DNA of 49,789 bases from Atractiella rhizophila (Eukaryota), in the NCBI GenBank assembly GCA_021432655.1, contig MU271386.1:1-49789 (forward strand), given 5' to 3'. Position 1 is the stretch's first letter, and each line of letters begins with the position of its first letter. The position numbers were made by a program, and so were the translations under genes. The notes beneath the pieces are model-generated. The model had not been told where the DNA came from. It saw nothing but the letters and a program-made list of their open reading frames with translations, and did not search any database. Shown in pieces: positions 17,186 through 43,088 of this stretch.

Positions 17186-18001
17186 AATGCTAATTCTAGT
17201 GAAAGACTTGTCAGTATAGACCCCGTTCGACGTTCAAAGGAGAAAGGTTGGCACGAGGGTCAGCATTCGATGCAAGTTGCCTCTGTTGAACAAATTACAC
17301 GTTTTGACGAAGAATCTTGTACAAGCATAGATGATACATAAGGACGTGCACCACGCAAGATGCAAACCAGATCAAATTCGGGGACATGGCGAGAATAAGT
17401 CCTCCAGCTCAGGATATCATAACGAATGACTCTGATGGCAACTCATGGGACATCGTCATCCAACACTTCCCAATACCCGGTATGTGGGGTTACGCACGGT
17501 GTGTTCTTTGTATATCTATGAAAATTGTGGCGCGTTCTCATCTCCTTCAACTTGACTCCCACCTAGACCCTGAACTGTAGCTGCGTCTCTATTCTGCTAT
17601 TCCTTGCAACTGCTCTGCAATGACAAAAGTTGAAAAAAGTGTAAATGATCGAGCTGATGTCAACTTTGCCATCGAAGGAGAAAGATACTGTAAGTTGAAG
17701 CCGTCGATGACGCAAATAGCACCCAGTGGCTGCTGCGGAATAACAAAGGCAGCTCTCAATCACTAAACCAGCATTGTGGGCCTCCAAAAAAACCGCAGCA
17801 ACCCAATGACAGCTCGGGATCAAATCGGCACTGAACAAGATACATCGCGCTGTGGACTTGGCCTAACATGATCTCGCTTCATTACTGACTAGAGTGCCGC
17901 GAACAAATGTGAGCTTCGCGCTACAAAATAGCATTGCTGCAGAAATCATACATCTTTCATACATCAAACCTGAACATTATTTATTGAAGATAAGAAATCA
18001 T

Positions 18002-20686: not shown

Positions 20687-22147
20687 ATGTCCATAAATGA
20701 AGACCACTTTCTTTTCGGCTCTCTTCCTCCTGAACTCCAAGAAGAGATAATCATCCAGACTGCGATGCTCAAAGAAGATTGCAAGGGGACACTACGATCC
20801 CTGAGTCTTTGCGACCGTCGAACCAGAGATCTGTCAATCCGACATCTTTTTGCCGATATTTATCTTTCGAATGAAAAGGCAGGCGATTATCCCCTCGATG
20901 GCGCTTCGCCGCCACAACCTGTTCTGTTGCCGAGCAGCTGTCTCTCGATCCAGCACTTCTATAATGTGAAAACGATCCATATCATTTTGGATGAACCACT
21001 TTGTTTTCAAGAGGCGAAGTTGCGCCTGGAGGCGGGCTGGCGACTCCCTGAGTTTGAACCTTTCGACACTCACATGCATCAATTTCTCTACTTGCGATCT
21101 TGCTTGAGAGAATTGATTACGGCTTGTCCACGTTTGGAGGCGATCGACACCTGTTTCATGGCTGATGTTGATTTAGATCTCGAATTTTCAGAGCCCTACC
21201 ATCGTCTCGTGTGTCATGGTCTGTTTCACATCTTCTATCAGCTCAAACTTTTAAGTAACACGATATATCTCGGATTTCACATCGAACTTGGGGGCTCTCT
21301 GTACTTTGAACAGAATGCGCATCTCCGAATCCACGAGATTCTCGACTATCTAACAATCGAAGACAAAATCAAAGGGATCGGGTATTTTTCTTACAGGATA
21401 TCAGGAGTCACATGGGATTCCATAACATCTCGACCAGCAGTCGAATATCTTGTTATGGCCTGCCTTCCTGCCCGCATTGATCGGCCTGTTTTAGCTCCAA
21501 TTCGTCGATTGGTCATCGATGCCTATGCATCTGATGTTCCCCTGAATGGGGGATACGGATTCAACTGGTGGTATGCCCTTTACTTCCTTCGTGCCTGTGC
21601 TCCTACGCTTCAGGATGTGTACATGCGCGAGTGTATTCTGTTTGGCGAAGAAGAGCAGTCTTTACCTCCTCCTCCACAATATCCTGGTCTTAAACGGTTT
21701 TACTTTTCGAACATCATCCATACTTGCTATCGTGAGGTAGAGATGCGGCAGAGACGCCAAAATAACTTGATGCGCCAATTACAAGCCGTCCTGCACGAGT
21801 TTGGTACTTGTCCTGTCGAAACCCTTGGATTTTCAGTGAACTATTCGCAACTAGCATTGATTCAGTTGCCCGAGTCAGAAGCACCCACCGAACTCTCAGA
21901 CTCTCTGGTGGCTCAATTTGGAGGTTTGAATATGCCTGAAGTCACACACATTTGTGAGCGCGATGTTGCCTGCATTGTGCATTTTATTACGAAACAAAAG
22001 AGAAAAGGGATGCTAGCTCAACTACGGCATGTTGAATTTGGAGAGTCAATTTTTTCTGCATTAAGGGGATCCCCAACGGCTACAAATTACAAGCTAGAGC
22101 TAGAGAAGATAGGTGTTGACTGGAGATGTCGAACTGAAAACTGGTGA
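20687..22147 (+). CDS. F-box-like protein (cassette 1), single coding exon
   Basis: N-terminal FLFGSLPPELQEEIII..LRSLSLCDRRTRDLSIRHLF F-box pattern; long uninterrupted ORF; probable 5'UTR intron 20603-20683 (GTAAGT..TTTGCAG) just before ATG. Confidence 0.8.
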   Translation: MSINEDHFLFGSLPPELQEEIIIQTAMLKEDCKGTLRSLSLCDRRTRDLSIRHLFADIYLSNEKAGDYPLDGASPPQPVLLPSSCLSIQHFYNVKTIHIILDEPLCFQEAKLRLEAGWRLPEFEPFDTHMHQFLYLRSCLRELITACPRLEAIDTCFMADVDLDLEFSEPYHRLVCHGLFHIFYQLKLLSNTIYLGFHIELGGSLYFEQNAHLRIHEILDYLTIEDKIKGIGYFSYRISGVTWDSITSRPAVEYLVMACLPARIDRPVLAPIRRLVIDAYASDVPLNGGYGFNWWYALYFLRACAPTLQDVYMRECILFGEEEQSLPPPPQYPGLKRFYFSNIIHTCYREVEMRQRRQNNLMRQLQAVLHEFGTCPVETLGFSVNYSQLALIQLPESEAPTELSDSLVAQFGGLNMPEVTHICERDVACIVHFITKQKRKGMLAQLRHVEFGESIFSALRGSPTATNYKLELEKIGVDWRCRTENW

Positions 22148-22299: not shown

Positions 22300-22392
22300 C
22301 GTTATCGTTGTCGTTGCCGTAAAGTAACCAGTATGAGTCAACTAAATTGTCAAGGAATCAGACTGGATCACACGACCGCTGTTCTGAACTAG

Positions 22393-22906
22393 TCATCTTC
22401 CAGAAGTGTTTCCATGCCGAGAGCCCTGACCACCATTGCTGTTCCCATTCTGAGAACCTTGGCCCCTGCCCGTTCCGTTCTGTGTAGTAGTGTTGGTGCC
22501 ATTTATGAACGTTCTGCCAGTAGTAGAAGCGGTGGTGTACGCGTTCGTGGTGTAGCCGTTTGCAGCTCCGTAATTGTTAGGTTGACCGTTGACGCCGTTG
22601 GTGCCCGCGTAAGCATTCCTGTGATACAAAATCAAAGTCAGGCATAGAAGTAATCAGAACATACTGGACCATCCCATTGGTACCACCATTGTAACCATAA
22701 GTGCCCCAATCTAAAACAGGAGGGGACCCCGGCGTGACACCCATAGGTGGTCGAAACATGGAAATTGTATTGTTACTAGAAGAGGGGTGAACGGGTGCCC
22801 ACGCAGGGACAGTCGGAGCAAGGGGTGCACGAGGCTCATTATGCCCAGGGCAGTAGCCACTCGTGCGTGCGTTGCTCATGCATCGGCGACAGTCGCGAGC
22901 CAACAT
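22393..22906 (-). CDS. Small protein (~155 aa) with N-terminal C-x2-C-x9-C-x2-H motif and N/G/T-rich low-complexity tail (cassette 1)
   Basis: Exons 22665-22906 and 22393-22618 joined by 46-bp GTATGT..CACAG intron in frame: MLARDCRRCMSNARTSGYCPGH...MVQNAYAGTNGVNGQPNNYG... Confidence 0.65.
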
Positions 22907-23490: not shown

Positions 23491-25099
23491 ACTAAAGGCG
23501 GAGAACAATTTGGTCCAATTAGTGACGAGGAGAACGTAAGGCATTGAGAGACGCCATTCACGACGTAAAATGCAGAGAAAAATGACTTATTCGTCCAAAT
23601 CAAGCCTGACGGAAAGAAATACCCTTCAATCAACTAACACTCAGTCAGGTTTTAGTTGATAACCTAAATGATGCATTGTTTGCTATTTCAGATGGGAGGA
23701 GAAGACCCTCAATGAGTCCAATGCTGATTGAAACCAATGACTTGCACTCTCCTTTCGGAGACAAAAGAAACCAGCTCCAGAGCCATCACGCAAGCGAAGG
23801 TTCAAGGGCAACCATTCTTCTTACAATAATCAGCAACCCATCGAGTGAGCGAGTGAGCCTTGTGATCAGTGCTTTAAATTACGCAGTTTCTGAATGAGTT
23901 GCGAATCGCATTGAACCTCCCTGGATCTGGAGCAAGGTGACAGCTTAGGACGAGGCAACAATACGATCAAAGATTGTGGAGATTCCATTTCGAGCCTTGT
24001 CTGCCACTGAACGTACGACCCAAAGGCTTGTAGCTTGTTCAGATTTCTCTCGTTACGGCGGAACAAAGAACCTCTGTGTTCTCAGGAACAACTTGCGAGG
24101 GATTGCACCGTCAACAGCCAGGTTGATTTCGAATTCTGCAAAATTTGGGTAATATTCACAACTTTGAAAAGCAAGGAAGGTGAAAGCACATGTTATAGCT
24201 ACAAAGTTAAGTCTCAGAACCATACAAATACTTCCTTTTTGTTGCCCTCCGCATCGGCAGCCCCTGTGGTGATTCTGAAATGCACCGTAAATGTCAACAG
24301 GAGATGTCGGTATGCTGCAAAGGCGAAACCCGTTATAACAACTGAAGGAATAGTCATGTGACGGTCTCTATTCAATACGGAGTGTTCAATGTGATAAAGC
24401 GGTCTTCCCGATTGATTAGCACGTCTAAAAGTGTCTTATGCATCCCACGAGGCTCAGGCCTTCGAGGTTCCTGTTCAATATGAAAGACCAGATGAGAGAC
24501 AATCACTTCGAGTAAATATGGATCGCAGTCGTTTTGCAAAGACGGTTTGAACAGGTTGCAGATTTGAAGTTAAGCTGGGCAACGGGGAATCATTCAGACT
24601 GTTTGGTGGAGAGAGAAGTTTTTATCGCCCCTGTGCACGGATCTTTTTGGAAACGGTACACATAGACCGGATTGCATTGGATTAGAAAAACGAGATTTCC
24701 GGTCAATTGCAAAACGCACAGCACGCTGCCCAGGTGCACTACTGAATCTTGCAAGACAGTGACAGATAACTACAAGCGTTCACATAACACAGCGCTCAGT
24801 GCATAAGTGTGGCCGTTCACAAGCAGGAAAGTGGCCATGTCAAGCGCCATTCTTTCAACTTTTCAATTCTGGAGCAGCCAGGAAATACCAGGCAGCAAGG
24901 GAATAAGCTCTGCACAGGAATCGTTCGACTCCACCTTCGAAGGAAAGGACAGACCTTTATCTAACATGGGTATTTCATCGAGCTTACCACCACTCGTCTG
25001 CCATGCTCAATAAAGTACACCCAGCTGTGTGAGTTGTCGAGAGACTGTTCGTGGGCACCTTGATTCAGGTTGTGTGGTCGTGGCCGTTCTCCAAGCAAC

Positions 25100-26225
25100 A
25101 ATTGTCAACAATCTCCAACGACCAACGGTTAGACCATCTCATTTCATCTCACTTCCTCTGCACTCGAACCATCTAACTACCCATTACACCGCTCTCACCC
25201 AGCGCTGGCTCAACTCCCCCTCAACGAGCCAAGCGAAAGGTTTCGATCCTACCCTGCTGGCAGAGGCACAACGACTACATCACACGATCGGCGTGTTCGC
25301 ACTTACAAAGGAGAGAGAAGAGGGAAAGCAATATCTTGGAGACGCTTTAAATGCATTAAAAGAGTTGGATGGCGGTGCTTTGAATGAATTTGTTGGGACG
25401 AAAGTGAAGCTAGGAAAGTTGGACACTTTCAGGAGGAAGGAATGTCATGTTCTGTTTGTGGAGCCTGAAAGCGAGGATGGCAGGCTGGCGAAACTCGCTG
25501 GTGAGCGTTCTATACCTTTGAGGGAGCAGCGAAGGGAAACCCGGTTCGCACGCCTAGTGCCACCTCGTCTCATTTCTGAGGGCGTTGTGGGATGTACCTG
25601 AAAGTCTTGTCGTCCATTTTTTTTGCTAACTATACGTCTATTCTCGTTCGAAACTGTATAAAACTCTATCAACGGCGCGTCGAAATTAAACAAACAGACT
25701 TGAGATTTACCTTCTATTGCTCCTGAATTGTTTCCTTTCAGCAGAAGAATTTCTGCCCGAATCTTTGTTTCAGAGAGCCTACGCCATCATTTTCTTTCCC
25801 GCGGTTTCCAGTTTGCAGACGGTGATCGCCTGTTAACTGTTCGTTTTCCTATCATCACCAATTTCGTCGTCAATGTTTGTTTCAGTTGCATTTGACTGTT
25901 ATGAACACATCGTACCGCCGGTCACCTCGTCCAGAAGGGAAGCCAGCGCCAAATCGAAACAAGAAGCGTCTGCCGTTCGATCCTATTCCTTTCCTCCACC
26001 CTACCCCTTCAGATGCAACTGTGACTACCAACCTGTCGGACGGAGTCAAAGCAGAGGGAATGATCGTGGTGGATGGTAATGTCGGTTGGACCTGGTGTGG
26101 ATAGTGAACTTGGGGAACACGTCATTGAGAGCATACTGATCTGTGCGATGGGAAGTAGAGATGAGCAAGGGCGATACATTGCCCTCGAGACAGTGAGCCT
26201 GAAGGAAATGAATGAACATGTATAA
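25100..26225 (+). pseudogene. AKAP7/ASCC1-like 2H phosphoesterase domain gene, apparently degenerate
   Basis: RPSHFISLPL, RLHHTIGV (first HxT), KRLPFD, and C-terminal LGEHVIESILICAMGSRDEQGRY in different frames; no clear ATG or second HxT. Confidence 0.55.
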
Positions 26226-26872
26226 TGCATATGGCATATGTCATCGCTAATTCATCATCACTCTACACGTTGTCGCCATTTTGATAGTAATTTACTGTAA
26301 ACTAATCATCCTTGTCTGTGATACCCTCGTTCTCGTTATTCTCGTTATTCTTTTGTCGTCTCACACAACTCGTTCGCCGTACTTGCGAGATTACGGGGAA
26401 GACCTGTTATTCAAGGTTTCATTTTTACCTACTTCGATCCACCACCCTCTCAGTTTGCTAGGTTGTTCTATGGACACGTTCTGAGTAAAGATCTGGACAA
26501 TGTTGTAAGTCGGATCCCACAACGTTTGCCTGTCTTTCCCAGTACAGTGCGAACTGACGCAGCTTGTCAGCTTGTTGTCTATCACCACAACTTTGCAGGA
26601 AATGCAATTTTTTTCGTTTCAATCGCTCCCTACCGAGCTTCAGAGCGAAATTATCGATGAGCTTGCAGTGCTAGAACCTGATCGCCGAACACTTATTTCC
26701 ACCAGTCGAGTCAATCGCAGGCTCAGGAAGCTTTGTGCCCACGCCGTTTCAGAAGTATTTATCTACCTAATGCCAGTTATCACTCAACACACAATCATAG
26801 ATGGCGGGTTGATTTCTCAACACCTCTACATGACCTTCCTCAGTCATACTTACCCTACATCCGGATTGTTCA

Positions 26873-27161
26873 TGTGAGAGAGAGACATACCACATGACTC
26901 CATCTTACTTCATCATCTTACTTCCCTTCGCTCATTTCTCTAGCTTCATTCATGTTCCTTCCCTTCGCTCGTTCCTTTCGCTTCGTTTCACTCTCCCTCT
27001 TTTGTTATCCACTCGTCGGCACGTGTACATAGGGTTAGGGCCACCACCAACCTGATTCCCCAGCGTTTCCACCATCTCATTTCGCTGGGGATCAGGTATG
27101 TAGCTTCATTTCATGCCATAGAGCGTTTCCACCATCTCATTTCGCTGGGGATCAGCTCACA
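26873..27161 (+). repeat. 5' LTR (289 bp)
   Basis: Differs from 33282-33573 by 4 substitutions and one 3-bp indel by manual comparison. Confidence 0.95.
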
Positions 27162-27175
27162 TGGTAGCAAGAGCC
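27162..27175 (+). promoter_or_regulatory. Primer-binding site (initiator-Met tRNA type)
   Basis: TGGTAGCAAGAGCC immediately after the LTR-terminal CA. Confidence 0.8.
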
Positions 27176-27273
27176 ATATAGTAGCTATAAAATACCTACG
27201 CGTGTCTAGTTTTGGGTTTAACGCCGCCCATCACGAATTTTTGTAACAACAAATCTGACCTTGTCAACATCAT

Positions 27274-30200
27274 ATGTCTCGATACCTCACACCTTCTGAC
27301 GATAGAGACCCACCGCCACATATCCCTTCTCGACCTCTATCTCCAACGCCATCGCATACTACCGAACCTTTAATTAAAGCCTCCCCTCCGATTTCTTTCC
27401 GTAGCGCCGACATGGAGCTATCTTCTACCTCCCCGGGGTTAATCATCGATGGAGTACCATCTATCATACACGTGGGATTCAAGAGCTGGTGGGAGGCGAT
27501 GAAGTTGGGCTTGCAAGTGAGAATGGTTTACCGTTATGCTCTGGATGTCACTTCTGAAGGGGAGTTCCGTCGGTCGAAACCGGTTCGTAATGATTTTCAA
27601 CATCAGTCGCAATGGGAGGATGCTATGGAGAAATGGGAAGCTGGAAATGCGAGAGCGGTGGCCATACTCCTCGCCAATCTCGATGTGATGGCGGTCAATC
27701 AACTTGATGAACAGGACCGCCGAGTCGCCAGTGCGATTGTTGCGAAGATGCGTACTCTTTTCAGCACCACGCAAGCAGTCATGGGTCACACTATTTTTGC
27801 GCGATTAGTCAGTTTTCATCAAGGAGGATCTGGATCTGGATCAATGGCGCAATTCATAACCGACTGGAATGAGATTTACGCTGAATTGATCTCTGCTGAT
27901 GCGTCTTATGCACTTTCCGATGCGGTCAAGTTCCTCATTTTTGTCAATCTCCTTGAACCGGAATGGAGAAAATTTGCTTTGAACCCGAAGAATGTAACCC
28001 GAAACGATATCACCGACCTAATTCGAAAAATTGAAGGCAGAAGACATGACGAACACCGTCATCGAAAATGGGGACACAGGGATGAACCCGCGTTATCAAC
28101 GGGAGACGAGTGTTTACGCCGTATCAACTTCACACTCCCGATCCGTACCCCTGCCTCCATCGTCCCAGCCTCCGATGGGATCCTACACTCCTATGCCTCG
28201 ATGGTCTCCTTCTCCCTCACGAACGTCCCAAACGACTGATTCCTCGCCGCGATATCGTTCAAACCCCCCTTACCGTACAGCCTTGTCGAATTCCCCTGCA
28301 CCTCGTGCCACCACGCCTCTTTTTCAATCTTCTACCCCTAAGACCACTCAACGTCAATATCAGCATTGGTCAGTCCGCCCCCCTACACTGCAACAGCTCG
28401 GGAAGGGGTACCGTTTTACACGACAAGTTTATAGCAGGCCTGGCACAAGAGTTTTTGGCAGACGGGCATGGGACTATGACGGGCTGGAACTATGGCCAGG
28501 TTCAATAGCGCCTTCGGGACATTTCGTTGTACACCCAAACCAATGCGTCTACTGTCTTGGGATGGGGCATATATCTTCCGGTTGCCACGTCCCTACTGGT
28601 CAACGGGATACTGCCCGCGATGCTGCTTTCGCATCCATGGGTATCACTCTTCGTCCAAGTCCTCCAGGACGACCAAATTATGTCCATCCATCTGTACTCA
28701 TTGCCAGCCCTGTTTTCTCGACGAGCGATGAGCTAAACGACACCGGTATCCCACGCAGCGGAAACGATGTATTTAGCCCTGGCCCAGACGGTCGATTCGA
28801 CGGAAATTTGGATGGCAAGTTGATTTATTCTGGTGACTTAGCATACTGGCCTTCCTACGTTCAAGCGGCTTACGAACAACGTCGTTGGCCTGTACCTCAA
28901 CCTGCGCACGACCCTGAGCTCAAGATCCACCCACTTTTCATCCCTCAATACACATACAACAACCCACTTCCTCCCTCCGAATCACATTTTCATACCCACG
29001 TTCAATATGCTCCTGACGGTGACATGGCCTTTGAAGATGCGCTACAGGAGATCTCAGACTCAGAGTACCTGGCTTGCATGGAAGAATACGAAGTGACCTC
29101 GAAGAAGCCCCCTCCCTCGCCAAACCAATCTTCCCTCCTTGTTTCACCTCATGCTTTTATTTCCTCGATCCAAAATGAAAAATTTTCTTTTTCTGTTCCT
29201 AACGATGCTCCAAATGCTTTGTCCTTTTCTTCTTGGATTCAAAATTGTTTACCATTTGCTTTATCTCGTTATCTTAACTTCGACTTACCTCCACCTTTGT
29301 TTCGTCTTTTGGAATCCCCTGCTTCTATCGCCGAACGGTTCTTACCCGTCGACTACGTGGCGAACGTTGCTGCTCTCCACTCCTCCACATTTTCCGACCT
29401 CAATTCGAAAACTCGCTCGTTCCCTTTTCAAGCTACGATGCCGCTATACCTCCTACAACTTTCCGCTTCCTTGCGCGTGAACACCCAGATATCCCTTCCA
29501 TATCTGTGGATTGCTACGTCGACTCGGCTGCGACAGTTCACATGTCAGGCTCCACCGAACTGTTCGATGACCTCCAACCGATATTACCTCCTGTCTTCGT
29601 TGGTGGCGCGTTTGGGAGTGGCGGATTTGCGACCCATATGGGCAGAGTTCGACCACTCCTCGAGGATCAAAGCGGGCTCTCAATTTCCCAAGCGAATCTT
29701 GGCACTGGTCTCTACGTCCCTGGACTCGGTGTCACCCTGGTATCTCATTTCGACCTCATGCGCCGTGGGGTCCGATTTACCAACAACCGCGAACACCTCT
29801 TCTTTCGTCGTGAAGATGGTAGACACTTTGGTATGGCAAAGTTCGGCCAGTCGCAGATAGAACTTCAGGCGAGATCCCCCTCCCTACCTATCCAAATGGC
29901 AAACATAGCTCACTCAAGCCCGTCTGCTCTTGCAGTTACGAATTCCAAAACATGGCATTCACGTTTAGGTCACATTGGTGCCAAACGATGGTGGGAGCTA
30001 TGTAGCTATGTACGGGAGGTTGGGTTACAGGATTCGATTGCAATCAAACTGCGTTTGAATCCTGCACTATCTGCGCGGCTGGGAAATCAAAAGCACGTCC
30101 GAATCGAAGGACCACAACAACATCTTCGTCCACGAAAGGTGAACGGATTGATTGTGACTTGTGGGGTCCCGCGCCAGTATCTGCATTGCAGAGTGGCTAC

Positions 30201-33025
30201 CGTTATGGACTCGGAATCGTAGAAGAGTCCACTGCCATGATATGGTGGATTCCCCTACGACTCAAGTCAGATGCCGCCATGGCCTTGAGAATGTGGATCA
30301 CAGAGACGGAACGTCATCACGGTATTAAGGTGAAGATCCTGCGAAGCGATAACGGCGGGGAGTTCAAGTCAGTCATTTTCAAATCTTTTATACAAAAATC
30401 AGGTATCACTCACGAGACTTCAATTCCATACGTTCACAACCAAATGGGATTTATGGAGCGACGTTGGTATACAATGTTCGATGTAGCTCGCACAATTCTC
30501 TTGGAGTCAGGTTTGCCTTTATCTTTCTGGGAAAAAGCAGTTCAGTTTGCCGTTCACACTTTAAATCATCTACCCACTTTTTCGCACGGGTCTTGGAAGT
30601 GTCCTTTGAAATTATGGACAGGCACAGCGCCTGATGTTTCTTCTCTTCGTACTTTTGGCTGCTTAGCTATTATTCACATTCCAAAGGAGAGGCAGATATC
30701 GAAACTCCATCCGAGAGGGGCACGAGGATACTTCGTAGGATATCTGCCTGGGGCAAAGGGTTGGCTCTTTTGGGTACCGTCGCAAAGGCGATTTGTGGAA
30801 GCGAAGGATGTCAGATGGTTCGAAGATCAGTTTTATCGGGATCGGAGTGCGGAGGATACGGAACGCCTAAGTGACTGGACTCTCGACGAATTCATGCCCT
30901 CTGAGTTTCATAGCTTGGCTGACGATGTTCCCGTTAACATTCCAGGTCCCGATGAAGTAGTGCCGCCCACCACATCAGATAACCCTTCCGTACAACGCCC
31001 CCCTCCTGAACCCCCACGACGTCCTCAGCTCCCCCAGATATTTACATTCGGAGGGAGTTAGATGATGTTGAGGGGGGGGTTGCCGAGTCCTACCGCGAGC
31101 GAAGAAGCTGTGCAGGCACAAATGGTCCGTGCTAGACAGGTACGCAAGCGTATACCACAACACTCACCTGCCCCATATCCAACCCCAAGCCAACGTCCAC
31201 GACGTGATATATCGCGAATCGATTATACTGCCCAGCTGAAGGGTAGGCCATCAAACCAAGAAGGGAGGACCCATAAACATTCCAATTACTTTCTTGATGC
31301 ACACTTCCGATCCACTGACCAAGGTTTTATTCCCTCGCTAGCAAGCAGGAAGATGGCGTCATCCGTACGCTCATCTTTACAATCATCGATCTCAGGTGAA
31401 GGCGAGGACGTAAGACGCTGGCAGGTATTTGCGGCTAATGTGAAATGGACAGGTAGTCTAGACGAACCGTCTTTTAAACAAGCACTCTCTGGACCTGACG
31501 CCGAAAAATGGTGGGAGGCGATCTTGGCGGAGATAGTGGCGTTAAGAAGTATGGGAACATGGGATGAGAAGCCTATTCCACTGCCCTCTGGCAAGAAAGC
31601 AGTGGGTTGCAAATGGGTATTGCTGATAAAAAGGGATCTAGATGGAAGCATCATCAAGTACAAGGCACGACTAGTTGCTCGGGGTGACACACAGACTGAG
31701 GGAGTAGATTTCGAAGACACCTTCGCTCCTACCGTGCGTATAGTGTCTATTCGCGCTATTCTTTCTCTCGCGGCGTCCAGACGCATGAAGCTAGGGCAAT
31801 TTGACGTCAGCAATGCGTTCTTGAATGGAATACTGGGTGAGGAAGTATATCTTCGTCAGCCTCAAGGTTTTGTCGACCCGCAACGGCCTGCTCATGTTTA
31901 CAGGTTGCGAAAGACCTTATATGGCCTACGGCAGGCAGGCAAGGGATGGAACGATACCGCCCACGCGTTCTTTATCGACCAGGGATTTACAAGTTTGGAT
32001 GCAGACCATGGGTTATATTTTAAAAATGATGGAGAGGGACTGACTATTGTAGCTATCCATGTTGATGACGGTCTTATCGCGGCATCCACTCACACACTCA
32101 TCGAGAAGCTGTATACTGCGCTTCGCTCGCGATTCAAAATAACGACATCGCCAGTTGGGAATTTCCTGGGCATGAACATAACATGGGATGAAGAGAGAAG
32201 TATTATTACCTTGGACCAGGAAGCTTATGTGCGCAGATGCATTGAAAAGTATGGGTTGCAGGATATGAAACCGACTAAGACGCCATGCGACATTGACGAT
32301 CGGGTGACAGAGTCTTGGGCTGCCCAGACTGATGGTGAGAGGGAGTATATGAAAAGGATTCCTTACAGGGAAGCTGTGGGAGCACTGATCTATGCCGCAG
32401 TAAACACCCGACCAGACATTGCATTTGCTGTGAACAGGGCAGCATGATACAACGCCAATCCTGGACGTCGCCACTGGACAATGGTTCAAAGAATATTCAG
32501 ATACCTTTTAGGTACACTGGATTTCAAACTCATTTGGGACGCAACGGGTAGCACAACCCTTGAAGGTTTTCTGACTCTGACCATGCTGCTGACTTGGACA
32601 CTAGACGCTCGATATCTGGTGTTGTGTTTCGCTTGGGACGCTCAGCAATATCATGGATATCCAAGATGCAACCGACAGTCGCGATATCCTCAACTGAGGC
32701 CGAGTACATCGCACTCTCGACGGTGGAAAGGGAGGCGATGTGGCTACGGGCACTGTTATCACAGCTTGGTTTTCCTCAACAGAATGCGACACTAATCAGG
32801 GGAGACAACCAGGGATCCCTACTTCTGGCAAAACATCCTTCTAACCATGGTAGGACGAAGCATGTCGATGTACACTACCACTTTACAAGAGAAAAGGTAA
32901 CGTCTGGGGAGATCGTACTCGAGTGGATCCCTACGCAAGATATGGTAGCGGATGTGATGACGAAGGGCCTGGGATATTTACAGCACTCTAAATTGTGTTC
33001 CGCTATGGGGCTGTTATCAAGTTAG
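27274..33025 (+). pseudogene. Copia gag-pol polyprotein, broken by several frameshifts and stops
   Basis: Gag; CCHC knuckle CVYCLGMGHISSGC; protease YVDSAATVHM; WHSRLGH; integrase WGPAP..LRSDNGGEF; RT YKARLVARG, QFDVSNAFL, YGLRQA, IHVDD; RNase H STEAEY, DNQG, TKHVDVHYHF, ADVMTK. Confidence 0.95.
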
Positions 33026-33268
33026 ATGAGTGATTGCAGTGTTCAACTTTGATTTCCAATCCATTCTTGGATCCATGGGATTCTGCTTCTTCCAGTTTCT
33101 AGGCTATTAAACATTTCATTCCAACTTTTACTCATTTCTATTACTCATCTCAAGTAAGCTAGGACAATCCTGATATCACGTTTGCATGTTTGACCACATA
33201 AATTTATTCTCATCCTTTTACATTCCTTTTTTTTCCACTGCTGCTCATTTTGTATGCCTTCGTGCCTT

Positions 33269-33281
33269 GAGTGAGGGGGGG
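33269..33281 (+). promoter_or_regulatory. Polypurine tract
   Basis: GAGTGAGGGGGGG directly before the 3' LTR. Confidence 0.85.
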
Positions 33282-33573
33282 TGAGAGAGAGAGACATACC
33301 ACATGACTCCATCTTACTTCATCGTCTTACTTCCCTTCGCTCATTTCTCTAGCTTCGTTCATGTTCCTTCCCTTCGCTCGTTCCTTTCGCTTCGTTTCAC
33401 TCTCCCTCTTTTGTTATCCACCACTCGTCGGCACGTGTACATAGGGTTAGGGCCACCACCAACCTGATTCCCCAGCGTTTCCACCATCTCATTTCGCTGG
33501 GGATCAGGTATGTAGCTTCATTTCATGCCATAGAGCATTTCCACCATCTCATTTCGCTGGGGATCAGCTCACA
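33282..33573 (+). repeat. 3' LTR (292 bp)
   Basis: TG..CA, followed by TSD GTTCA. Confidence 0.95.
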
Positions 33574-35220
33574 GTTCACATCAATCTGGAGGAGGACATC
33601 TGTTTCGACGAGGCTTCAAAATATTCTATTTGGAACGATTCTCTATCGACCCCTGAATGCCGGACTGTTTTAATTCAATTCGTGAATCTAGTACGGTGCT
33701 TTCGAGATGTAACCACCTACTGCCGTTCTCTCAAGGAGGTGTTCATTCATCTCAAGTTTAAGGAAGGGATTGATTCATATTGGACAGCTTCTACCAACTA
33801 CTGCGGGCTGCAAAGCGTGGATTGAGTTCCCTTGTGGACCAAACCAAGTTTTGCGTCAATAGAATCCTACTTGGCCTTCGTGTCCACTTCGATGAATCAG
33901 ATTTTGTTTGGATAGAGTCACATATGAGAATCGAAGATGCACTCATTTGCATGTCCCAGCCAGACAGGATTGCCTGCATCGAATTTCATTCAGGCTTCAT
34001 ACCAGACTTTGTTTTACAATCGCTCTTATCATTGCCAGCGGTTGAGTAACTTTCGTTAGGTACTTGCAGTTTCCAGGACCTCATGTCGCCGTCGCAAACC
34101 ACTTCGACATCTAACTATTGATGCTCGAGCGTCCGACCGGTGTTGCAGCGATTATCTGGGGGAGTGGGAGTGCGCTTTCGATCTCGTCAGGACTTTTGCT
34201 GCCACCTTGGAGACTGTACACATACGCCACTACCTTGGACTTCGCGCAGGACTACACCTCGCCGAGTCACCTTTCCAATATCCCAATCTAAGACAGTTCC
34301 ACACATGCTTCATCCAACCTGAGCGTCCTCGACAAGATGAATGGTCTCCGACTCTTAGGAATACATACTTGATCAGTTGAAGCTCGTAGTAGGCGAGCTT
34401 TATCAAAGCTCTTGGGAGGTTTTTGGGTTTTCGGAAAGTTATTTGCCTGATGCACCGCCTTGGGCAGAGGTTGGCATTCTACCTATCGGTTCTGAGGAGA
34501 ATGTGCGGGATTTCCAATCGCCAGTTGCCTCGAACCGTTCTGAAATTACTCTGGCTTTTGTTGCTTACTTCATGGCGAAGAGAGGAAGGAAGGTAACCTC
34601 ATGAATCTCAAAAGAGTGGATTTTGGACAGTCTACTTTCGATTGCTTGACCAGAATAACGCACGCAAGGAGTCATGGCGAATTGGCAAAACTAGGAATTG
34701 TGACTAGGAGGAGGTGTCGTGAGGAATAGCTTGTCCAGACTTAAATATTATTACAATAACCGTGTATCAAATTTCAGGCTCATAGTAGGTACAGGACAAT
34801 GGACATTCTATTGAAAACTGATTTGTGATCACTGAGAAAAGAATGAAAGAAGTAGTATAAGGACAAGAATGATAGTGAGGGAGATCCGTGTTTCGCGCAA
34901 CTACTAGTACAGTAGAGACTGAAAATGGGAGAATATCCACGGCCACGGAACAAAACTAATTGTACAGAAGTAGGCACTGATTGGAAATGACAGCGATGAG
35001 CAGAGAAGTCAGGCAAAAGTGCCAAGTTGGCGCGCATCGAGACGAAGAGGGTACGAAACATAACAACTGATCAACGGGTTTGCACATCAACATGGATCAC
35101 TATCTGGCATACATCCTGCACCCGGGGATCATTAACATCAATCTTGTATAGGCACAAATGATAAAGAACGCACGGAAACATTGCTACAGCCCAAGATATA
35201 GTGTCAACATCGTCTGCAAT

Positions 35221-35766
35221 TTAAAAGTTGTTCCAAGAGTAACGTCTAGGAGGAGGGAAGTGTGGATAAAAGTTGTAGCCAGAAGGGTAAGCAAAAGGAT
35301 CACGAGGAGGGGGGTTGGATGGAAAGATCGGATTTATGAAGCTGTTGCCGCCAGTGAAATCCTCATTGTAGGTGGCCCTTGGGTATTGAAAGTTGTCCAA
35401 TGGGGAAGGACCCAAGTCTAGCATGATTATCCTTTCCTCCTCCTCTCGGCGAGCCCTCTCTGCCTCCCGGGAACGTCTCTCTCGCTCTTCTTGCATTTCC
35501 CTCCTCCTCTGCCGCTCCTCTTCCCGTCTCCTCCGCGCCTCTTGTCGTCTCATCGGCTCCTCCAGTTCCCTCCTCCTTCTCTCCTCCTCATCTCGTTGCT
35601 CAATTCGCTGACGCTCTTCCGCTTCCCACCTCAACATTTCCTGTTGTCGAGCAGCTCGAGCGAGCCGAATCTCTCTCGCTGCCTCTGCGGCTCGGAAATG
35701 TGGACATGGCGGCACATCTACGCCCCGTTGCGAACAATCATTACATATCTTCCTGTGAGCCTCCAT
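35221..35766 (-). CDS. Small protein (181 aa): N-terminal C-x2-C-x9-C-x-H motif, E/R-rich charged helix, P/F/Y/N-rich tail (cassette 2, allele A)
   Basis: Intronless ORF MEAHRKICNDCSQRGVDVPPCPHF...; frame is preserved in the diverged second copy. Confidence 0.8.
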   Translation of the reverse strand: MEAHRKICNDCSQRGVDVPPCPHFRAAEAAREIRLARAARQQEMLRWEAEERQRIEQRDEEERRRRELEEPMRRQEARRRREEERQRRREMQEERERRSREAERARREEEERIIMLDLGPSPLDNFQYPRATYNEDFTGGNSFINPIFPSNPPPRDPFAYPSGYNFYPHFPPPRRYSWNNF

Positions 35767-36021
35767 GTCTGATTGGTCAATGGAGAATTGTGAAGATAGA
35801 GAGGCGAGGAGGGGAGGATAAATGTCATTTTATATCTGCTGGTTGGCAGCATCCCTTTACAAAAGGGTGACTTTGTTAGATCGTTTGCGAGAAGGCCATA
35901 TCTGGTTCGCAAACGCAAAACAGCAAAGGTAAAGTATCATCTGCGTCATCAGCACATGGACGCAGTCTAAGTGCGTTTCCACTGGACCATCCTAGAAGTG
36001 GAAGAGAGTGTAATCAACAGA

Positions 36022-36430
36022 AATGACTTGTTCTCGACATCACGAGAGGCGGGAAAGAAAAGGCGCGAAGCCACTTTCAACCAAATCAATGTCTCAAGTC
36101 GCTCAATCTAATCAGTAACCTTGCCAAGTCTTTCACTATTGCAAACAGATGGACGTCACGAGCGGCGGGAAAGAAAAGGGCCGGAGTCTCGCTCCAGCAA
36201 ACGAACGTACGTCAATGTCTGAAGTCTTTCAATTGAAATGACCTTGGAAGAAGTCATTGTTATTTCAAATAGAATGAACGAGAATGACGTGGTCAATTGC
36301 AAGAAAAATTAATTTATTGAAGTGAAATGACTTGCACTCTCAAGTCGGAAGCGATAGCGGGAGAAAAAGAGTTTTAGCAGAGCGACACATGGCATAATGG
36401 ACTGCTCAATTGCTCATAAGACTTGGAGGC
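36022..36430. promoter_or_regulatory. Conserved non-coding element upstream of small gene 2 (also in copy B from ~41264)
   Basis: Homologous to 23144-23490; GGCGGGAAAGAAAAGG at 36048 and 36164; AATGACTTG at 36022 and 36326. Confidence 0.65.
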
Positions 36431-37307
36431 GATGAAAGGTGGTGCTTTGTGTGTCGGAACTTCAACTGCCCTGAAAGAGTACAAAGAGTCGTGACAAGGA
36501 ATTTCGAGAACAAATGCTAACCAGACCAAGCTGTGGAGATAACAAATGTAACACAGAAGATGCCAAATTGCGTTTGCATATACAATTAGGACAAATTTCC
36601 TTTCAGTTTCAAGAGTGTTCGAGTATTCTCTCCTCGTGACAATTGGAAGTGTAGAACAGCGTATTAAATTGTTTCCGAAAGGGAAATAGAAAATATGACG
36701 CTTTCCTCATTCATGGCATAAAGCGATGGGATGCACAACGAACAATTTTGATAGTCGAGGAAGATGTCAATGAATATAAATGAACAGCTAACGAATTCTG
36801 CCATTCATCCTTCCTGCAATCCGTAAACCCTTTATCCACCTTTCTATGTCTCATGGTTTTCCCTAGTCATATCTAATCCCATGTCAAAGGTTAATAGAGC
36901 TGGTTTGGGCATCTTCCAGTTCAAGGGTCTCTTTGTGGGATTCGGCGAAAAGGGAGATTGTTGGGTGAGATTCAATAGTTGCGTCGGATAAATTGATGCT
37001 GGGAATGAAAGGCATCGGCAATCAGTTACAACAATGGTCGACCACACAAAGGCAGACACAAGGGAAGAGATTGTGAGTGACGAAAGGAGTCACCCTCACA
37101 CTACCCCGCTAGTTCGATATCAACTGGACAAACACTCCGCGAACTTTCTGCCTCCTGAGTCGTTTCCCTATTTTACGAGCTCATAGCACTCTTCCAGCTA
37201 TAGACTTAGGAGATATAGGCACCCCATAACATATATACCGCATTTCAGGCCAAAAATCACGAACGACACGAACCGCGGGACGATCCATTGTGAAAGGGGG
37301 ATGAACG

Positions 37308-37886
37308 ATGCCAGCGCGTCCTTCTTCCGCTCTCGGACACTCTCCTTCCCTCTCACAGTCCGCAATCAATGGTATTTCGGCGGTAGAGAAGGACGGGAAA
37401 GATGTGCAACTCAAGGATTATCAGATTGGAGAGGTGGTGGGAAAAGGAGGTATGTATTTCTTTGTCCTAGAAGCAAAACGTGCTTTGGGATGGTGCGCCG
37501 CTTACTATGATTGCTCGAAAGGCATGCATATGCTCAAAGCACATTTGTGCTTCTGCACAATGCATGAGCACCTGGCAGCATAACGGACTCATGCTGTTAC
37601 TGCGAACTACATGTGCCACGGTAGATTTCTATAAAGAAGGACAGTTGGGACTCTACCATGTCTGCACATGCGAGAAACAATGCAAAAAGAGCGACTCGTT
37701 GCAATGCAATTATGTTTGTACAAGTAGCTCTAGGGGTGCGCGTTGCTAGTTGTTCCTATAAGGTCATCAGATGCTCCATTCCGATTTGTCCAGCTTGCAC
37801 ACAGCGCGCTTCCCTTTGCAGAAATCCACAGAGGATGAGGTGCATTCCGTACAACTCGCACGAAAGACATCATTCCATGTTATGCT
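37308..37886 (+). other. Redundant copy of kinase exon 1 and most of intron 1, truncated by the gap
   Basis: Same [17 protein letters not shown] exon as 42510; ends at N run. Confidence 0.9.
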
Positions 37887-37911
37887 NNNNNNNNNNNNNN
37901 NNNNNNNNNNN
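37887..37911. other. Assembly gap (25 N)
   Basis: N run. Confidence 1.
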
Positions 37912-40900
37912 TCTTCTATACGATACTAACAAGCGTTTCCCCGCATTGTCTCCGCGGTACAGGTGTAAATCACGCTCGGCGTCTCCGTCTCTCTCTCTAA
38001 GCCGAACGAGCGCGACGACCTGTTGTCCTTTACAACTCCACCCTTCGTCTTCTCGCCGCTGCTTAACTCGTTGCTCTACTCCTCCTCTCTTCCTCCTCCC
38101 TTGACCTCCTCGGCTACTCTGCTGTTCTCCGCGTCTCCTCTGCCCTTCTCCTTGCCGTCTCCTCCTCCCTTTAAGTTCTTCTCGCTCTCTCTGCAAGGTC
38201 CCTCCGTGTCTCCCGAGCGGCTCTCCTCCTCCTTTCCTATTAGTACGATCTGAACCCAGGAAGGGGTAACCTGTTGAAAGTTATAGGTTCCTGATGGATG
38301 TTACTCCTAAAGTGACCGCCGTTGTCGAAGTATTTAGGCTAGAAAGGTAGGTTGGGGGGAGGAGCACTAGGAAAACGAATGGGAAGACCGATGTTAAAAA
38401 TAGGCGTGATGGGAGGAGGATCTGCAATGAGAACCTTGTTGAAAATTTAACGTCTACTACAAACTGTTCTATAGAAACCCGACATCGTTACAAAGGCAGC
38501 GCAAAGAAATAGTAAACACGGATATGTTCTAACTACAATTACTAGGGGCCCACGTCCTACATACGGTCTATCACTAGGTACAACTACACGTTTGGCCTAC
38601 TAGTCAACAATACAAAGCATGGGAGGGGCAGAGCTACGCGCGGTTGAACCGAGAAAACGGACTGAAGAGACGAGTAGCGACAGTAAAGGTTAGTCACGGA
38701 TCAAGACATGTTAATCAAAACAAGGCAACCATAAGAGGGTAAAAGTGAGAGATGACATGATCATCAACGCGCTTTGAACCTAGAGGGAGAGACAGAAGAA
38801 TATGATCAGGAAGAAAGTAAGAAAAGAGTCACTAGTGTTTAGTCAAAAGTTGTCTTACAGGTAACAGGACATGGATGATACTCGGACTTTATACTATGTG
38901 CCAATAACATTATTATAAATTCAGACCTGTTCGATAAGGAGTGCTGTGGGGGAGGATCAGTGTTAAGGATCAAAACGGTTAAGCGGCTACTGAGGAACGC
39001 ACGTAACAAGACCAGTTCGTTAGCTTTCATCTGACAGGTTTTAGGTGAGAAAACTCTAAGTACTCCAATGGAAGGAAGGAGAAGAAGCGGTACTTCATTC
39101 GTTGTTTTCGGTCTCATTAAAGTCTTGCCAAGCTCCGTTGACCGTTAACCTTTAGGGCGTGTAAGAGGAGTCTTGGCTATCCATCTTACGGTTGGAGACG
39201 GGTTCCGCCACGTAGTCCGTTTATTGAAAGGCTTTTGGGTTTTTGGAGGGTTCTCGAAACTATTTCGAGCGGATGATGCTCGAAGTTGACTAGTTCATAC
39301 ATAAGGATTCTCAGCCTCTGGTAAGTAGAACAGCTCCTGCGAGTCCAACCTACTTCGTACACACCTTGACAGAATCTAACCCTATAACCTTTCCACTGAG
39401 CCGCTCCACATCAGGACGCGCTTCAGGTTCCATCACCGCATACACATGTCAGAGGTTCCACCGTCGTTTTCAGGACTGCTCTAGCTTTCGCGTGAGGGTG
39501 AGGGGGTCTATTAGCGACGTTGTGGCCAGCCTGCGAGCTCGTAGTTATCAATCTACAGCTTCTGACCAAACGCCGCCGCTGTACTCCATGACCTTTGACG
39601 TTCATGGATTGTTTTCAATGAGTTGGCGACCGTTACTATTCTCGCTAACATTTTGTTTCAGACCATATACTTCGGACTTACTTTAAGCTACGTCCGTTAG
39701 GACAGACCGACCCTGTACGTTTACTCAAGTAGGAAGCTAAGAGTATACACTGAGATAGGTTTGTTTTTAGACTAAGTAGCTTCACCTGTGCTTCCGGTTC
39801 ATCCTAAAATAACTGCGTTTTGAACCAAACCAGGTGTTCCCTTGAGTTAGGTGCGAAACGTCGGGCGTCATCAACCATCTTCGACAGGTTATGCTTAGTT
39901 AGGGAAAGGAATTTGAACTCTACTTACTTGTGGAGGAACTCTCTTGCCGTCATCCACCAATGTAGAGCTTTCGTGGCATGATCTAAGTGCTTAACTTAAT
40001 TTTGTCAGGCCGTAAGTCCCCAGCTATCTCTTAGCAAGGTTTATCTTATAAAACTTCGGAGCAGCTTTGTCTACAGGAGGAGGTCTAACTACACTTGACA
40101 CTCGACTAGGGGTCGCTTTACTCTACCACCTTTACGAGATACCGTACTTTACTTCGATGTATGGACTAGGGGTCGCTTTACTCTACCACCTTTGCGACCC
40201 CTTAGTCCAACCACCACCGGGATTGGGATACATGTGCACGGCTGCTCACCACCTATTGTTTTTTCTCCCTCTCACTTTGCTTCGCTTTCCTTGCTCGCTT
40301 CCCTTCCTTGTACTTGCTTCGATCTCTTTACTCGCTTCCCTTCATTCTGCTACTTCATTCTACCTCAGTACACCATACAGAGAGAGAGAGTGGGGGGGAG
40401 TGAGTTCCGTGCTTCCGTATGTTTTACTCGTCGTCACCTTTTTTTTCCTTACATTTTCCTACTCTTATTTAAATACACCAGTTTGTACGTTTGCACTATA
40501 GTCCTAACAGGATCGAATGAACTCTACTCATTATCTTTACTCATTTTCAACCTTACTTTACAAATTATCGGATCTTTGACCTTCTTCGTCTTAGGGTACC
40601 TAGGTTCTTACCTAACCCTTTAGTTTCAACTTGTGACGTTAGTGAGTAGATTGAACTATTGTCGGGGTATCGCCTTGTGTTAAATCTCACGACATTTATA
40701 GGGTCCGGGAAGCAGTAGTGTAGGCGATGGTATAGAACGCATCCCTAGGTGAGCTCATGCTAGAGGGGTCTGCAATGGAAAAGAGAACATTTCACCATCA
40801 CATGTAGCTGTACGAAGCAGGATGGTACCAATCTTCCTACAAAAACGGTCTTCATCCCTAGGGACCAACAGAGGGGACTAATCACAGCGTAAGACAACTC

Positions 40901-40994
40901 CTTTTTGGTTCGACACTATTGTCACGGGCATCGGTGTAGCGGAGGGAAAGGTGGCAGCTCTCACGCTACATGAGCCGGGAGTCAACTCCTATAG
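37912..40994. other. String-reversed (mirror, non-complemented) copy of 32683-35753: RNase H end, 3' LTR, F-box 3' part, small gene
   Basis: e.g. CCATACAGAGAGAGAGAGTGGGGGGGAGTGAGTTCCGTGC (~40373-40412) is the letter-reverse of 33261-33300; un-reversing joins seamlessly to 40995. Confidence 0.97.
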
Positions 40995-41007
40995 TGTTAG
41001 CCTGCAT
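37912..41007 (-). CDS. Allele B of the cassette-2 small protein (182 aa), split by the reversal: 41007-40995 (normal minus strand) plus complement of 37912-38447
   Basis: Reconstructs an intact 549-nt ORF MQANKKICYDCSQRGVTEAPCPHLVRAAEAERE...YPHYPPPRRYSWNNF*. Confidence 0.8.
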
Positions 41008-43088
41008 GTCTGATTGGTCAACGGAGAATTGTGAAGATAGAGAGGCAAGGAGGAGAGATAAATGCCATTTTATATCTGCTGATTGGCAGCATTCCTTTAC
41101 AGAAGGGTGACTTTGTTAGATCGTTTGCGAGAAGGCCATAACTGGTTCGCAAACGCAAAAGCAAGAAGGTAAAGTATCGTCTGCGTCGTCAACACATGGA
41201 CGCGGTCTAAGTGTGTTTCCGCGGGACCTTCAATAACAGTGGAATAGAGTTTACTCAACAGAAAATGACTTGTTCTCGATATCACGAGAGGCGGGAAAGA
41301 AAAGGCGCGAAGCCACTTTCAACCAAATCAATGTCTCAAGTCGCTCAATCTAATCAGTAACCTTGCCAAGTCTTTCACTATTGCAAACAGATGGACGTCA
41401 CGAGCGGCGGGAAAGAAAAGGGCCGGAGTCTCTCTCCAGCAAACGAACGTACGTCAATGTCTCGGGTCTTTCAATTGAGGTGACCTTGGAAGAAGTCATT
41501 GTTATTTCAAATAGAATAAACGAGAATGACGTGGTCAATTGCAAGAAAAATTAATTTATTGAATTGAAATGACTTGCACTCTCAAGTCGGAAGCGATAGC
41601 GGGAGAAAAAGAGTTTTAGCAGAGCAACAGATGGCATAATGGACTGCTCAATTGCTCACAGACTTGGAGGCGATGAAAGATGGTGCTTTGTGTGTCGGAA
41701 CTTCAACTGTCCTGAAAGAGTACAAGGAGTCGTAACAAGGAATTTTCGAGAACAAAGATTCCTAACCAGAACCAAGCTGTGGAGATAACAAATGTAACAA
41801 AGAAGATGCCAAATTGCGTTTTCATATCACAATTAGGCCAAACTTGCTTTCAGTTTCAATGGAAGTGTAGAACAGCGTGTTAAATTGTTTCCGCAATGGA
41901 AATAGAAAATATGACGCTTTCCTCATTCATGGCATAAAGCGATGGGATGCACAACTAACAATTTTGATAGTCGAGGAAGATGTCAATGAATATAAATGAA
42001 CAGCTAACGAATTCTGCCATTCATCCTTCCTGCAATCCGTAAACCCTTTATCCATCTTTCTATGTCTCATGGTTTTCCATAATCATATCTAATCCCATGT
42101 CAAAGGTTAATTGAGCTGGTTTGGGCATCTTCCAGTTCAAGGGTCTCTTCGTGGGATTCGGCGAAAAGGGAGATTGAGATAGTATGTAGTATAAATTGGT
42201 GCTGGGAATGAAAGGAATCGGTAGTCAGTTGCAACAATGGTCGACGACACAAAGGGAAGAGATTGCCAGTGTGAAGATGGACGCAAGAAGTCACCCTCAC
42301 ACTACCCCGCTAGTTTGATATCAACTGGACAAACACTCCGCGAACTTTCTGTCTCCTGAGTCGTTTCCATATTTTTACGAGCTCATAGCACCCTTCCAGC
42401 TCTAGACTTAGGAGATATCGGCACCCCATAACATATATACCGCATTTCAGGCCAAAAGTCACGAACGACACGAACCGCGGGACGATTCATTGTGAAAGGG
42501 GGATGAACGATGCCAGCGCGTCCTTCTTCCGCTCTCGGACATTCTCCTTCCCTCTCCCAGTCCGCAATCAATGGTATTTCGGCGGTGGAGAAGGATGGGA
42601 AGGATGTGCAACTCAAGGATTATCAGATTGGAGAGGTGGTGGGAAAAGGAGGTATGTATTTCTTTGTCCTAGAAGCAAAACGTGCTTTGGGATGGCGCGC
42701 CGCTTACTGTGATTGCTCGAAAGGCATGCATATGCTCAAAGTACATTTGAGCTTCTGCACAATGCATGAGCACCTTGCAGCATAACGGACTCATGCTGTT
42801 ACTGCAAACTACATGTGCCACGGTAGATTTCTATAAAGAAGGACATTTGGGACTCTACCACGTCTGCACATGCGAGAAACAATGCAAAAAGAGCGACTCG
42901 TTGCAATGCAATTAAGTTTGTACAAGTAGCTCTAGGGGTGCGCGTTGCTATTTGTTCCTATAAGGTCATCAGATGCTCCATTCCGATTTGTCCAGCTTGC
43001 ACACAGCGCGCTTCCCTTTGCAGAAATCCACAGAGGATGAGGTGCATTCCGTACAACTCGCACGAAAGACATCATTCCATGTTATGCT
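40995..43088 (+). repeat. Direct diverged duplicate of 35754-37886 (probable second haplotype)
   Basis: Colinear with many SNPs and indels through to GTTATGCT, where copy A meets the gap. Confidence 0.95.

Follow-up and report, generated by a model that had tools for sequence, protein, structure and literature searches.

Two assembled copies of a small orphan gene of Atractiella rhizophila are probably diverged alleles of one locus, the second partly written in mirror order

We analyzed a stretch of 49,789 nucleotides (nt) from the heterozygous basidiomycete Atractiella rhizophila (assembly GCA_021432655.1, contig MU271386.1, positions 1 to 49,789, hereafter "the window"), which carries a small orphan gene with a Cys/His motif near the N-terminus of its product and, beyond a gap of 25 Ns, what appears to be a second copy of the same gene. 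The two copies, called A and B, are in our judgment probably one locus shown twice, comprising a real orphan gene with relaxed N-terminal positions other than the presumed metal ligands, an island of old haplotypes in which that gene lies, and an assembly fault that wrote part of the second haplotype as a mirror image. The assembler would have set both haplotypes side by side at the 25-N gap, where a 3.08-kb leftward extension of haplotype B stands back to front. In the protein, a helix and a tail are held by purifying selection; the N-terminal positions between the presumed ligands change about as fast as silent sites. The N-terminus would then appear hypervariable because the haplotypes are old at this place (synonymous divergence, dS, about 0.12), and the left flank would have a much younger ancestor, owing to recombination or gene conversion between a neighboring long terminal repeat (LTR) and the gene.

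The window is fungal in content: its genes have introns, and it encodes a protein kinase and a PfkB kinase and harbors a Copia element. When the window was compared with itself, positions 35754-37886 were found to recur at 40995-43088 with 93-94% identity, beyond the 25-N gap at 37887..37911. This second segment stands in normal orientation (plus strand), reaches into the protein-kinase gene, and carries the beginning of allele B on the minus strand (40995-41007) together with the allele B promoter. In copy A (37347..37886, plus strand), the kinase gene is represented by exon 1 and a portion of intron 1, which differ from copy B by 14 substitutions in 540 nt; beyond 43089 the gene is single-copy. 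Between the gap and the second segment lie 3,083 letters (37912..40994) that match 32683-35753 with 97.1% identity over 3,092 columns, and that do so only when they are reversed without being complemented. This mirror block contains allele B from codon 5 to codon 182, a leftover piece of an F-box-like gene and a 3' LTR, and the base that would be expected to adjoin 40995 adjoins the 25-N gap instead. The record can be read as haplotype A, the gap, and haplotype B, of which the initial 3,083 letters are reversed; apparently, the leftward extension of haplotype B was written without being turned round, from which we infer a software cause. To our knowledge, no process of replication or recombination yields a copy that is reversed only, and a biological inversion was therefore ruled out as the origin of the block. 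In about 450 kb of the genome that were examined, 2 of 4 gaps of 25 Ns adjoin a mirror block, and head-to-tail near-duplicates are frequent there. The second mirror block adjoining such a gap is C255:5712-6739, which matches C255:2530-3527 at 88%. Elsewhere in the window, positions 4074-4686 and 4688-5301 form a head-to-tail pair of 613 nt (93.7% identity, no gap), probably another side-by-side pair of haplotypes.

False haplotypic duplication is an artefact described for assemblies of heterozygous genomes (PMC9516828; 10.1101/729962). The locus resembles this artefact in its two 93-97% identical head-to-tail copies at a gap with single-copy flanks, and differs from it in that 3.08 kb of the second copy is reversed without complementing. 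A literature search on assembly blocks reversed without complementing gave no description of them among the matches listed. The program PBJelly extends contigs into gaps, reports "overfilled" gaps and uses 25 Ns as its smallest gap (PMC3504050). The 25-N gap and the insertion-rich extension found here fit these features, but reversed output is not among the behavior described in the consulted sections of that paper, and to name PBJelly as the program used here would be a guess.

Allele A is a single coding exon of 181 codons (35221..35766, minus strand), seen both as an open reading frame (ORF) and in an RNA contig. Allele B is split by the fault within codon 5, such that codons 1-4 and one further base lie in normal orientation at 40995-41007 and the rest lies in the mirror block; after un-reversing the mirror block by script, it forms an open frame of 182 amino acids. 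A preliminary description, made from the sequence alone, had counted about 9 changes in the first 25 residues and about 8 in the rest. The exact counts agree: from A to B there are 9 changes in residues 1-25 (E2Q, H4N, R5K, N9Y, D17T, V18E, P19A, F24L, and one extra codon) and 8 in the 156 residues from 26 to 181 (A30E, R40G, Q53R, R78Q, M91I, E103Q, A131T, F170Y). As that description had also stated, C8, C11, C21, H23 and the reading frame are identical in A and the un-reversed B, and the sole indel measures 3 nt. Codons 1-25 (35692..35766, minus strand), which hold the motif C-x2-C-x9-C-P-H formed by these four residues, differ from B by 12 substitutions and the 3-nt indel. The concentration of changes at the N-terminus is significant (9/25 versus 8/156, Fisher p=5e-5), also by a scan test that allows for post hoc choice of the window (p=0.0024). 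The chance probability of all four Cys/His residues surviving 8 substitutions is 0.17, which is not significant alone. When polarized with the broken paralogues described below, 5 of the 12 N-terminal substitutions are derived in B, 4 are derived in A and 3 are ambiguous.

Two lines of evidence bear out the earlier proposal that the ORF is a real gene. In codons 26-181, A and B differ at 8 of 359 non-synonymous and 11 of 109 synonymous sites (ratio of non-synonymous to synonymous divergence, dN/dS, 0.21; p=0.001); the frame is under purifying selection and the ORF is therefore supported as protein-coding. The second line comes from sequencing runs. Four runs (X1-X4) were mapped to the window as contigs, which drop rare variants and give no strand, transcript start or level; X4 consisted of four short, low-depth pieces and was not used. 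X3 is spliced RNA, as recognized by GT..AG joints in the kinase gene, and its contig 17 spans 35173-35792 with 1 other letter, matching allele A. A joint in X3 marks a 58-nt GT..AG intron in the 3' untranslated region of the small gene (35116..35173), with CT..AC ends on the plus strand, as fits a gene on the minus strand. Contig 17 runs on into the convergent F-box-like remnant, where it has a plus-strand intron; a contig over two genes is no proof of a single transcript. A TATAAAA box (35828..35834, minus strand) precedes the ATG by about 60 nt and has a CT-rich leader after it; A, B and the broken paralogues all keep it. The small gene is real, transcribed and processed, the transcript evidence coming from one run and from allele A only.

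Copy B is very probably an allele as well, rather than a paralogue or a burst of errors. X1 and X2 come from one sample, and because they differ from both A and B at 33696, 33808, 33876, 33975 and 34002, where X3 agrees with A, they were taken to represent another strain. Each of them has two contigs with identical ends (35573-35892) that cross the place of the faulty junction in normal orientation. The first measures 320 nt and has 0 differences from A; the second measures 322 nt and has 35 substitutions and 4 gap letters relative to A. For this segment, a contig from B should measure 322 nt and show 27 substitutions and 4 gap letters, and one from the paralogues should show 52-53 substitutions and 17 gap letters. 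Judged by its length, its gaps and its ends, the 322-nt contig was read as a B-like third allele. Outside the ORF, X1 and X2 repeat five letters that are specific to B (33777, 33940, 34712, 35200, 35201), and in both runs one contig joins copy-A place 36920 to copy-B place 42143. In this strain, other than the assembled one, A and B versions thus alternate at one locus. The depths of the paired contigs (229+116 and 124+69) sum to approximately those of neighboring single contigs (297-317 and 191-228), which is suggestive only. The depth ratio within the pairs is near 2:1 in both X1 and X2, as might result from nuclei present in unequal numbers, from three haplotypes or from mixing in the sample. 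Bins 38001-40800 of the mirror block had zero cover in all 4 mapped runs and were not used as evidence. The preliminary description had named two outcomes that would speak against it, namely that the differences vanish on read mapping or that copy B comes from a paralogous locus. On the first, the B-like contig spans the junction and the five B letters recur, both in another strain; on the second, the only paralogous locus in the genome (seen as C599:815-3300 and C472:25700-28200, which are 95% alike) is about 80% identical to the window locus and has a broken small ORF, so that it was ruled out as the source of B.

The preliminary description had gone on to interpret the N-terminus as a hypervariable recognition surface under diversifying or balancing selection, and here our results diverge from it. 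In codons 1-25, there are 9.5 differences in 58 non-synonymous sites and 2.5 in 17 synonymous sites, giving a dN/dS of 1.1. The proportion of changed non-synonymous sites (pN) of 0.163 is about 7 times that in the rest of the protein (p=3e-5), but it is not above the proportion of changed synonymous sites (pS), either in the same codons (0.150, p=1.0) or in the whole ORF (0.108; p=0.35 two-sided, 0.19 one-sided). A dN significantly above dS was not found in codons 1-25, where 17 synonymous sites give low power. A dN/dS matching flanking neutral divergence had been set beforehand as a refuting outcome, and the N-terminal pN does not exceed the synonymous divergence of the gene. The claim of diversifying selection was therefore not upheld; judging from the aligned alleles, the pattern looks like relaxed constraint at non-ligand positions on old alleles.

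We compared this with the background of divergence. Between A and B, divergence peaks at the 5' end of the gene and in its promoter, and declines to either side, reaching 0-1% to the left and 2.6% to the right, forming an island of about 2.6 kb (dS about 0.12). The upstream non-coding DNA of haplotype A (35767..37346) differs from B by 4.7% (74/1,580 nt), and by 7.7% in its first 300 nt (23 substitutions), and has its own window of at least 12 substitutions in 75 nt, near 35930. As a wider background, we used 16 other twice-assembled pairs (41,158 nt), which were not read-checked and were ascertained for divergence; inverted matches, matches of less than about 87% identity, and distant or very short matches were excluded as likely paralogues or repeats. 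Equally dense windows (at least 12 substitutions in 75 nt) were found in 8 of the 16 pairs, 7 of these 8 with at most 2 gap columns. Among non-overlapping windows in the other pairs, 9 of 543 windows of 75 nt and 16 of 198 windows of 200 nt reach the level of this locus. The N-terminal patch is in the upper 2% of windows, far from unique.

The rival that survives best is that the gene is itself a target of balancing or diversifying selection, with the Cys/His knuckle as a specificity surface in self/non-self or anti-parasite recognition and with old alleles raising the divergence of linked DNA, which we regard as possible though unlikely. It accounts for a divergence peak centered on codons 1-25 and the promoter that decays to both sides, for the raised N-terminal pN, and for the presence of at least three alleles (A, B and the B-like one), of which A is identical over 320 nt in a second strain. 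Set against it are the dN/dS of 1.1, not above the gene's pS; the equal density of changes in non-coding DNA and in half of the other pairs; and, for the protein, the negative results of the Pfam search at the curated cut-off and of the searches for homologues beyond this genome. While local divergence at the gene exceeds that of both flanks, 8 of the 16 other pairs match it, and only two or three haplotypes are available.

Several observations nevertheless weigh against the reading that we favor, one locus with relaxed positions on old haplotypes. With five fixed residues in the stretch, a dN/dS of 1.1 could be the average of sites under constraint and sites under positive selection. Substitutions scattered uniformly over the island would give a less sharp peak than the one seen (p=0.029 for 12 substitutions in 75 nt, p=0.002 for the observed maximum of 14), and the windows in other pairs that reach 12 substitutions are only the 9 of 543 mentioned above. 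N-terminal pN exceeds upstream non-coding divergence (74/1580, p=0.0006; 23/300, p=0.044), and the pS of the ORF also exceeds the divergence of the upstream DNA (p=0.005) and of the kinase side (14/540, p=0.0001). The second strain is heterozygous too, carrying A and the B-like class. In addition, the mirror block is noisy, with 17 of its 20 indels up to 35300 being insertions in B; for its 12 N-terminal letters B depends on the assembly and not on reads that show them one at a time, and those of the B-like allele are inferred; and the role of the protein is read from its architecture alone.

Short segments with strongly diverged haplotypes have been described in another basidiomycete, Schizophyllum commune, in which haploblocks cover about 10% of the genome, 88% of them being shorter than 1 kb (Stolyarova et al., PMC9187340). 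Such blocks of two or three haplotypes are read there as a signature of balancing selection, with associative overdominance given as an alternative cause. The likeness to our locus lies in the short segment and the two or three strongly diverged haplotypes; the difference is that the published haploblocks are defined by linkage disequilibrium in populations, and that here we have two assembled haplotypes and one other strain, with an island of about 2.6 kb. A haploblock at this place would not single out the small gene as the target of selection.

An account that makes the gene a mere passenger, with the island kept by linked selection, associative overdominance or admixture and the cluster of changes enlarged by multi-nucleotide events or conversion tracts, seems to us improbable. 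It overlaps with the explanation that we prefer and differs from it in what made the cluster. In its favor, 5 of the 12 N-terminal substitutions are packed within 7 nt (35712-35718) and two more are adjacent (35742-35743), the scan test weakens to p=0.041 when codons 17-19 are counted as one event, the paralogous locus offers a source for conversion, and associative overdominance is on record as a cause of haploblocks (PMC9187340). A single conversion tract is not what the comparison with the paralogue suggests: over 73 sites of codons 1-25 the two alleles are about equally far from it, with 17 and 18 differences, and the derived states are mixed. Least likely of all, and in our view highly improbable, is that A and B are tandem paralogues on one chromosome or that the differences of B are consensus errors from low-coverage long reads: codons 5-25 do adjoin the faulty junction and the excess of insertions in the mirror block is as expected from noisy long reads, but the differences in the ORF are substitutions that show a purifying bias and leave the frame open, two of these substitutions fall outside the mirrored part, the N-terminal changes are derived on both lineages (about half of them on A), which argues against an error burst, and the recurring B letters and the junction-spanning contig of X1 and X2 speak against both variants.

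The left flank of the gene has a different history. The preliminary description had noted that the neighboring LTR and F-box pseudogene are nearly identical between the copies, and this is correct: there are 0 substitutions in 891 nt of the Copia end and LTR, and 9 in 1,127 nt of the F-box-like remnant. The Copia LTR retrotransposon (26873..33573, plus strand; LTRs at 26873-27161 and 33282-33573; target-site duplication GTTCA) lies in the F-box-like gene. Between its LTRs there are 4 differences in 289 nt (1.4%) and one 3-nt indel, and the 3' LTR is common to A and B, which differ there by one 2-nt insertion. By these measures the insertion is young and common to both haplotypes, and for this reason the LTR is the wrong neutral baseline. 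A shared recent insertion also means that the left-flank ancestor of the haplotypes must be younger than the insertion. The LTR divergence of 1.4% contrasts with an ORF pS of 10.8% about 2 kb away, and points to a boundary of recombination or gene conversion between LTR and gene, with a chimeric gap-fill consensus as an alternative. The 3' remnant of the F-box-like gene (33574..34726, plus strand), convergent with the small gene, is broken by stops and shifts of frame in both assembled copies; the 5' part of that gene is found to the left of the retrotransposon, at about 26587-26872. At 34101, copy A lacks 2 nt that are present in B, X1, X2 and X3, and some of the "pseudogene" breaks are assembly errors in A. 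The part of the remnant directly behind the LTR (33574-33785) occurs in a spliced RNA contig of X3 with a 49-nt plus-strand intron, and the first 30 letters of that contig, a loose end, had no match in the window. A contig of X1 and X2 starts exactly at 33574, which may mean that their strain also has an empty site.

The protein itself was characterized by structure prediction and homology searches. Residues 26-112 (35431..35691, minus strand), of which 57 of 87 are Glu or Arg, are predicted to form a single long helix (spanning residues 22-116 in the model; predicted local distance difference test, pLDDT, 94-98 over residues 31-110). Residues 113-181 (35224..35430, minus strand) form a tail rich in Pro, Phe, Tyr and Asn that is predicted to have no fold, with a dN/dS of 0.15 between the alleles. 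In the same single-sequence model, pLDDT is 62-65 over residues 1-20. Residues 1-30, read from the sequence and not with a predictor, are polar and charged and lack the hydrophobic run of a signal peptide, which does not suit a small secreted cysteine-rich protein. Other than the protein itself, no homologue outside this genome was found in a search over lengths 99-317 with the top 8,000 candidates scored, nor in one against 1.84 billion representatives, nor for residues 1-45 against longer proteins, the last being weak evidence. Pfam gave nothing at the curated cut-off for the whole protein (BORG_CEP reached E=0.028 on the charged helix, below cut-off) and no family at E up to 10 for residues 1-30. 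A feature atlas search with ORF A returned no usable match, all structure rows having a template-modeling (TM) score below 0.5, and such a blank shows no novelty.

Among PDB entries, the only match at E up to 10 was yeast Air2 (2lli, E=1.4, not significant), a protein with CCHC knuckles. The small gene resembles these in its C-x2-C-x9-C spacing, with C..CSQRG.....CPH as look-alike, and differs in that its only motif His stands two residues after the third Cys. When the motif was held against the knuckle pattern C-x2-C-x4-H-x4-C, the Cys spacing fitted, but where the pattern calls for His, A, B and the broken paralogues all have Val16. The fourth metal ligand could instead be H23, with zinc bound by three Cys and one His. 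Genome-wide, the motif pattern has 35 matches versus 18 for a control pattern; of the 30 loci and C964 that were retrieved, those read in frame beyond the two small genes of the window were true knuckles in long ORFs or chance. When residues 1-60 were modeled in complex with zinc and the F-box-like protein of the paralogous locus, which is intact, the score was 0.00 and was counted neither for nor against binding. Our best guess, drawn from the model, is that the protein may act as an intracellular adaptor with a putative metal knuckle, a rigid Glu/Arg spacer helix and a low-complexity Pro/aromatic tail that could serve in binding or in condensates.

At the paralogous locus on C599 and C472, the state is reciprocal to that in the window: the F-box-like gene is open and the small ORF is frameshifted. 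The F-box-like copies on C599 and C472 differ at 71 of 480 residues (dS 0.10, dN/dS 0.75), with 13 of 25 differing in a window around residue 385, a local density that further shows the N-terminal patch of the small gene not to be unique. Homology to C472 of 80-89% is seen left of the F-box-like gene, at 18000-19780 and 24369-26872, and since it reaches this far the paralogous locus appears to be a segmental duplication of more than 10 kb. The window also holds a second small Cys/His gene (22330-22906, minus strand; motif at 22841-22891), convergent with an intact F-box-like ORF at 20576-22147. Beyond C-x2-C-x9-C-P-x-H, little of the first gene is conserved in it, and upstream the two have about 290 nt in common at 67% identity; the likeness of the two core promoters was not above that of shuffles (127/500). 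A candidate 46-nt intron (22619-22664) would give it 155 amino acids with a prion-like tail rich in Gly, Asn, Thr and Gln. No atlas match and no Pfam family at cut-off were found for it (DUF5763 at E=0.003, below). If the two small genes are homologous, conservation of the ligands only would suit a metal site with free intervening positions. A small Cys/His gene is paired with an F-box-like gene at three loci of the genome, and inspection of the surroundings of more distant F-box-like genes, on C22, C214 and C255, turned up no small gene related to these. The F-box identity is based on 1 of 5 family members matching PF12937 (E=4e-5).

Fungal het/vic allorecognition loci carry alleles that are old and whose differences cluster in a short stretch. 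The small gene is like them in both respects, and unlike them in having no HET, NLR or other Pfam domain and a dN/dS not above 1. That it represents a new type of fungal self/non-self or anti-parasite factor, under balancing selection on the knuckle and working with the convergent F-box-like gene, we hold to be quite doubtful.

The assembly holds side-by-side haplotypes and backwards blocks that hide or split alleles, so that gene counts and allele comparisons made from it need read checks. A near-identical neighboring LTR misleads as a neutral baseline when its insertion is young. As it stands, the small gene is one more orphan gene in an island of haplotype divergence; if balancing selection on the knuckle were true, it would be a compact candidate recognition determinant without known domains in a basidiomycete.

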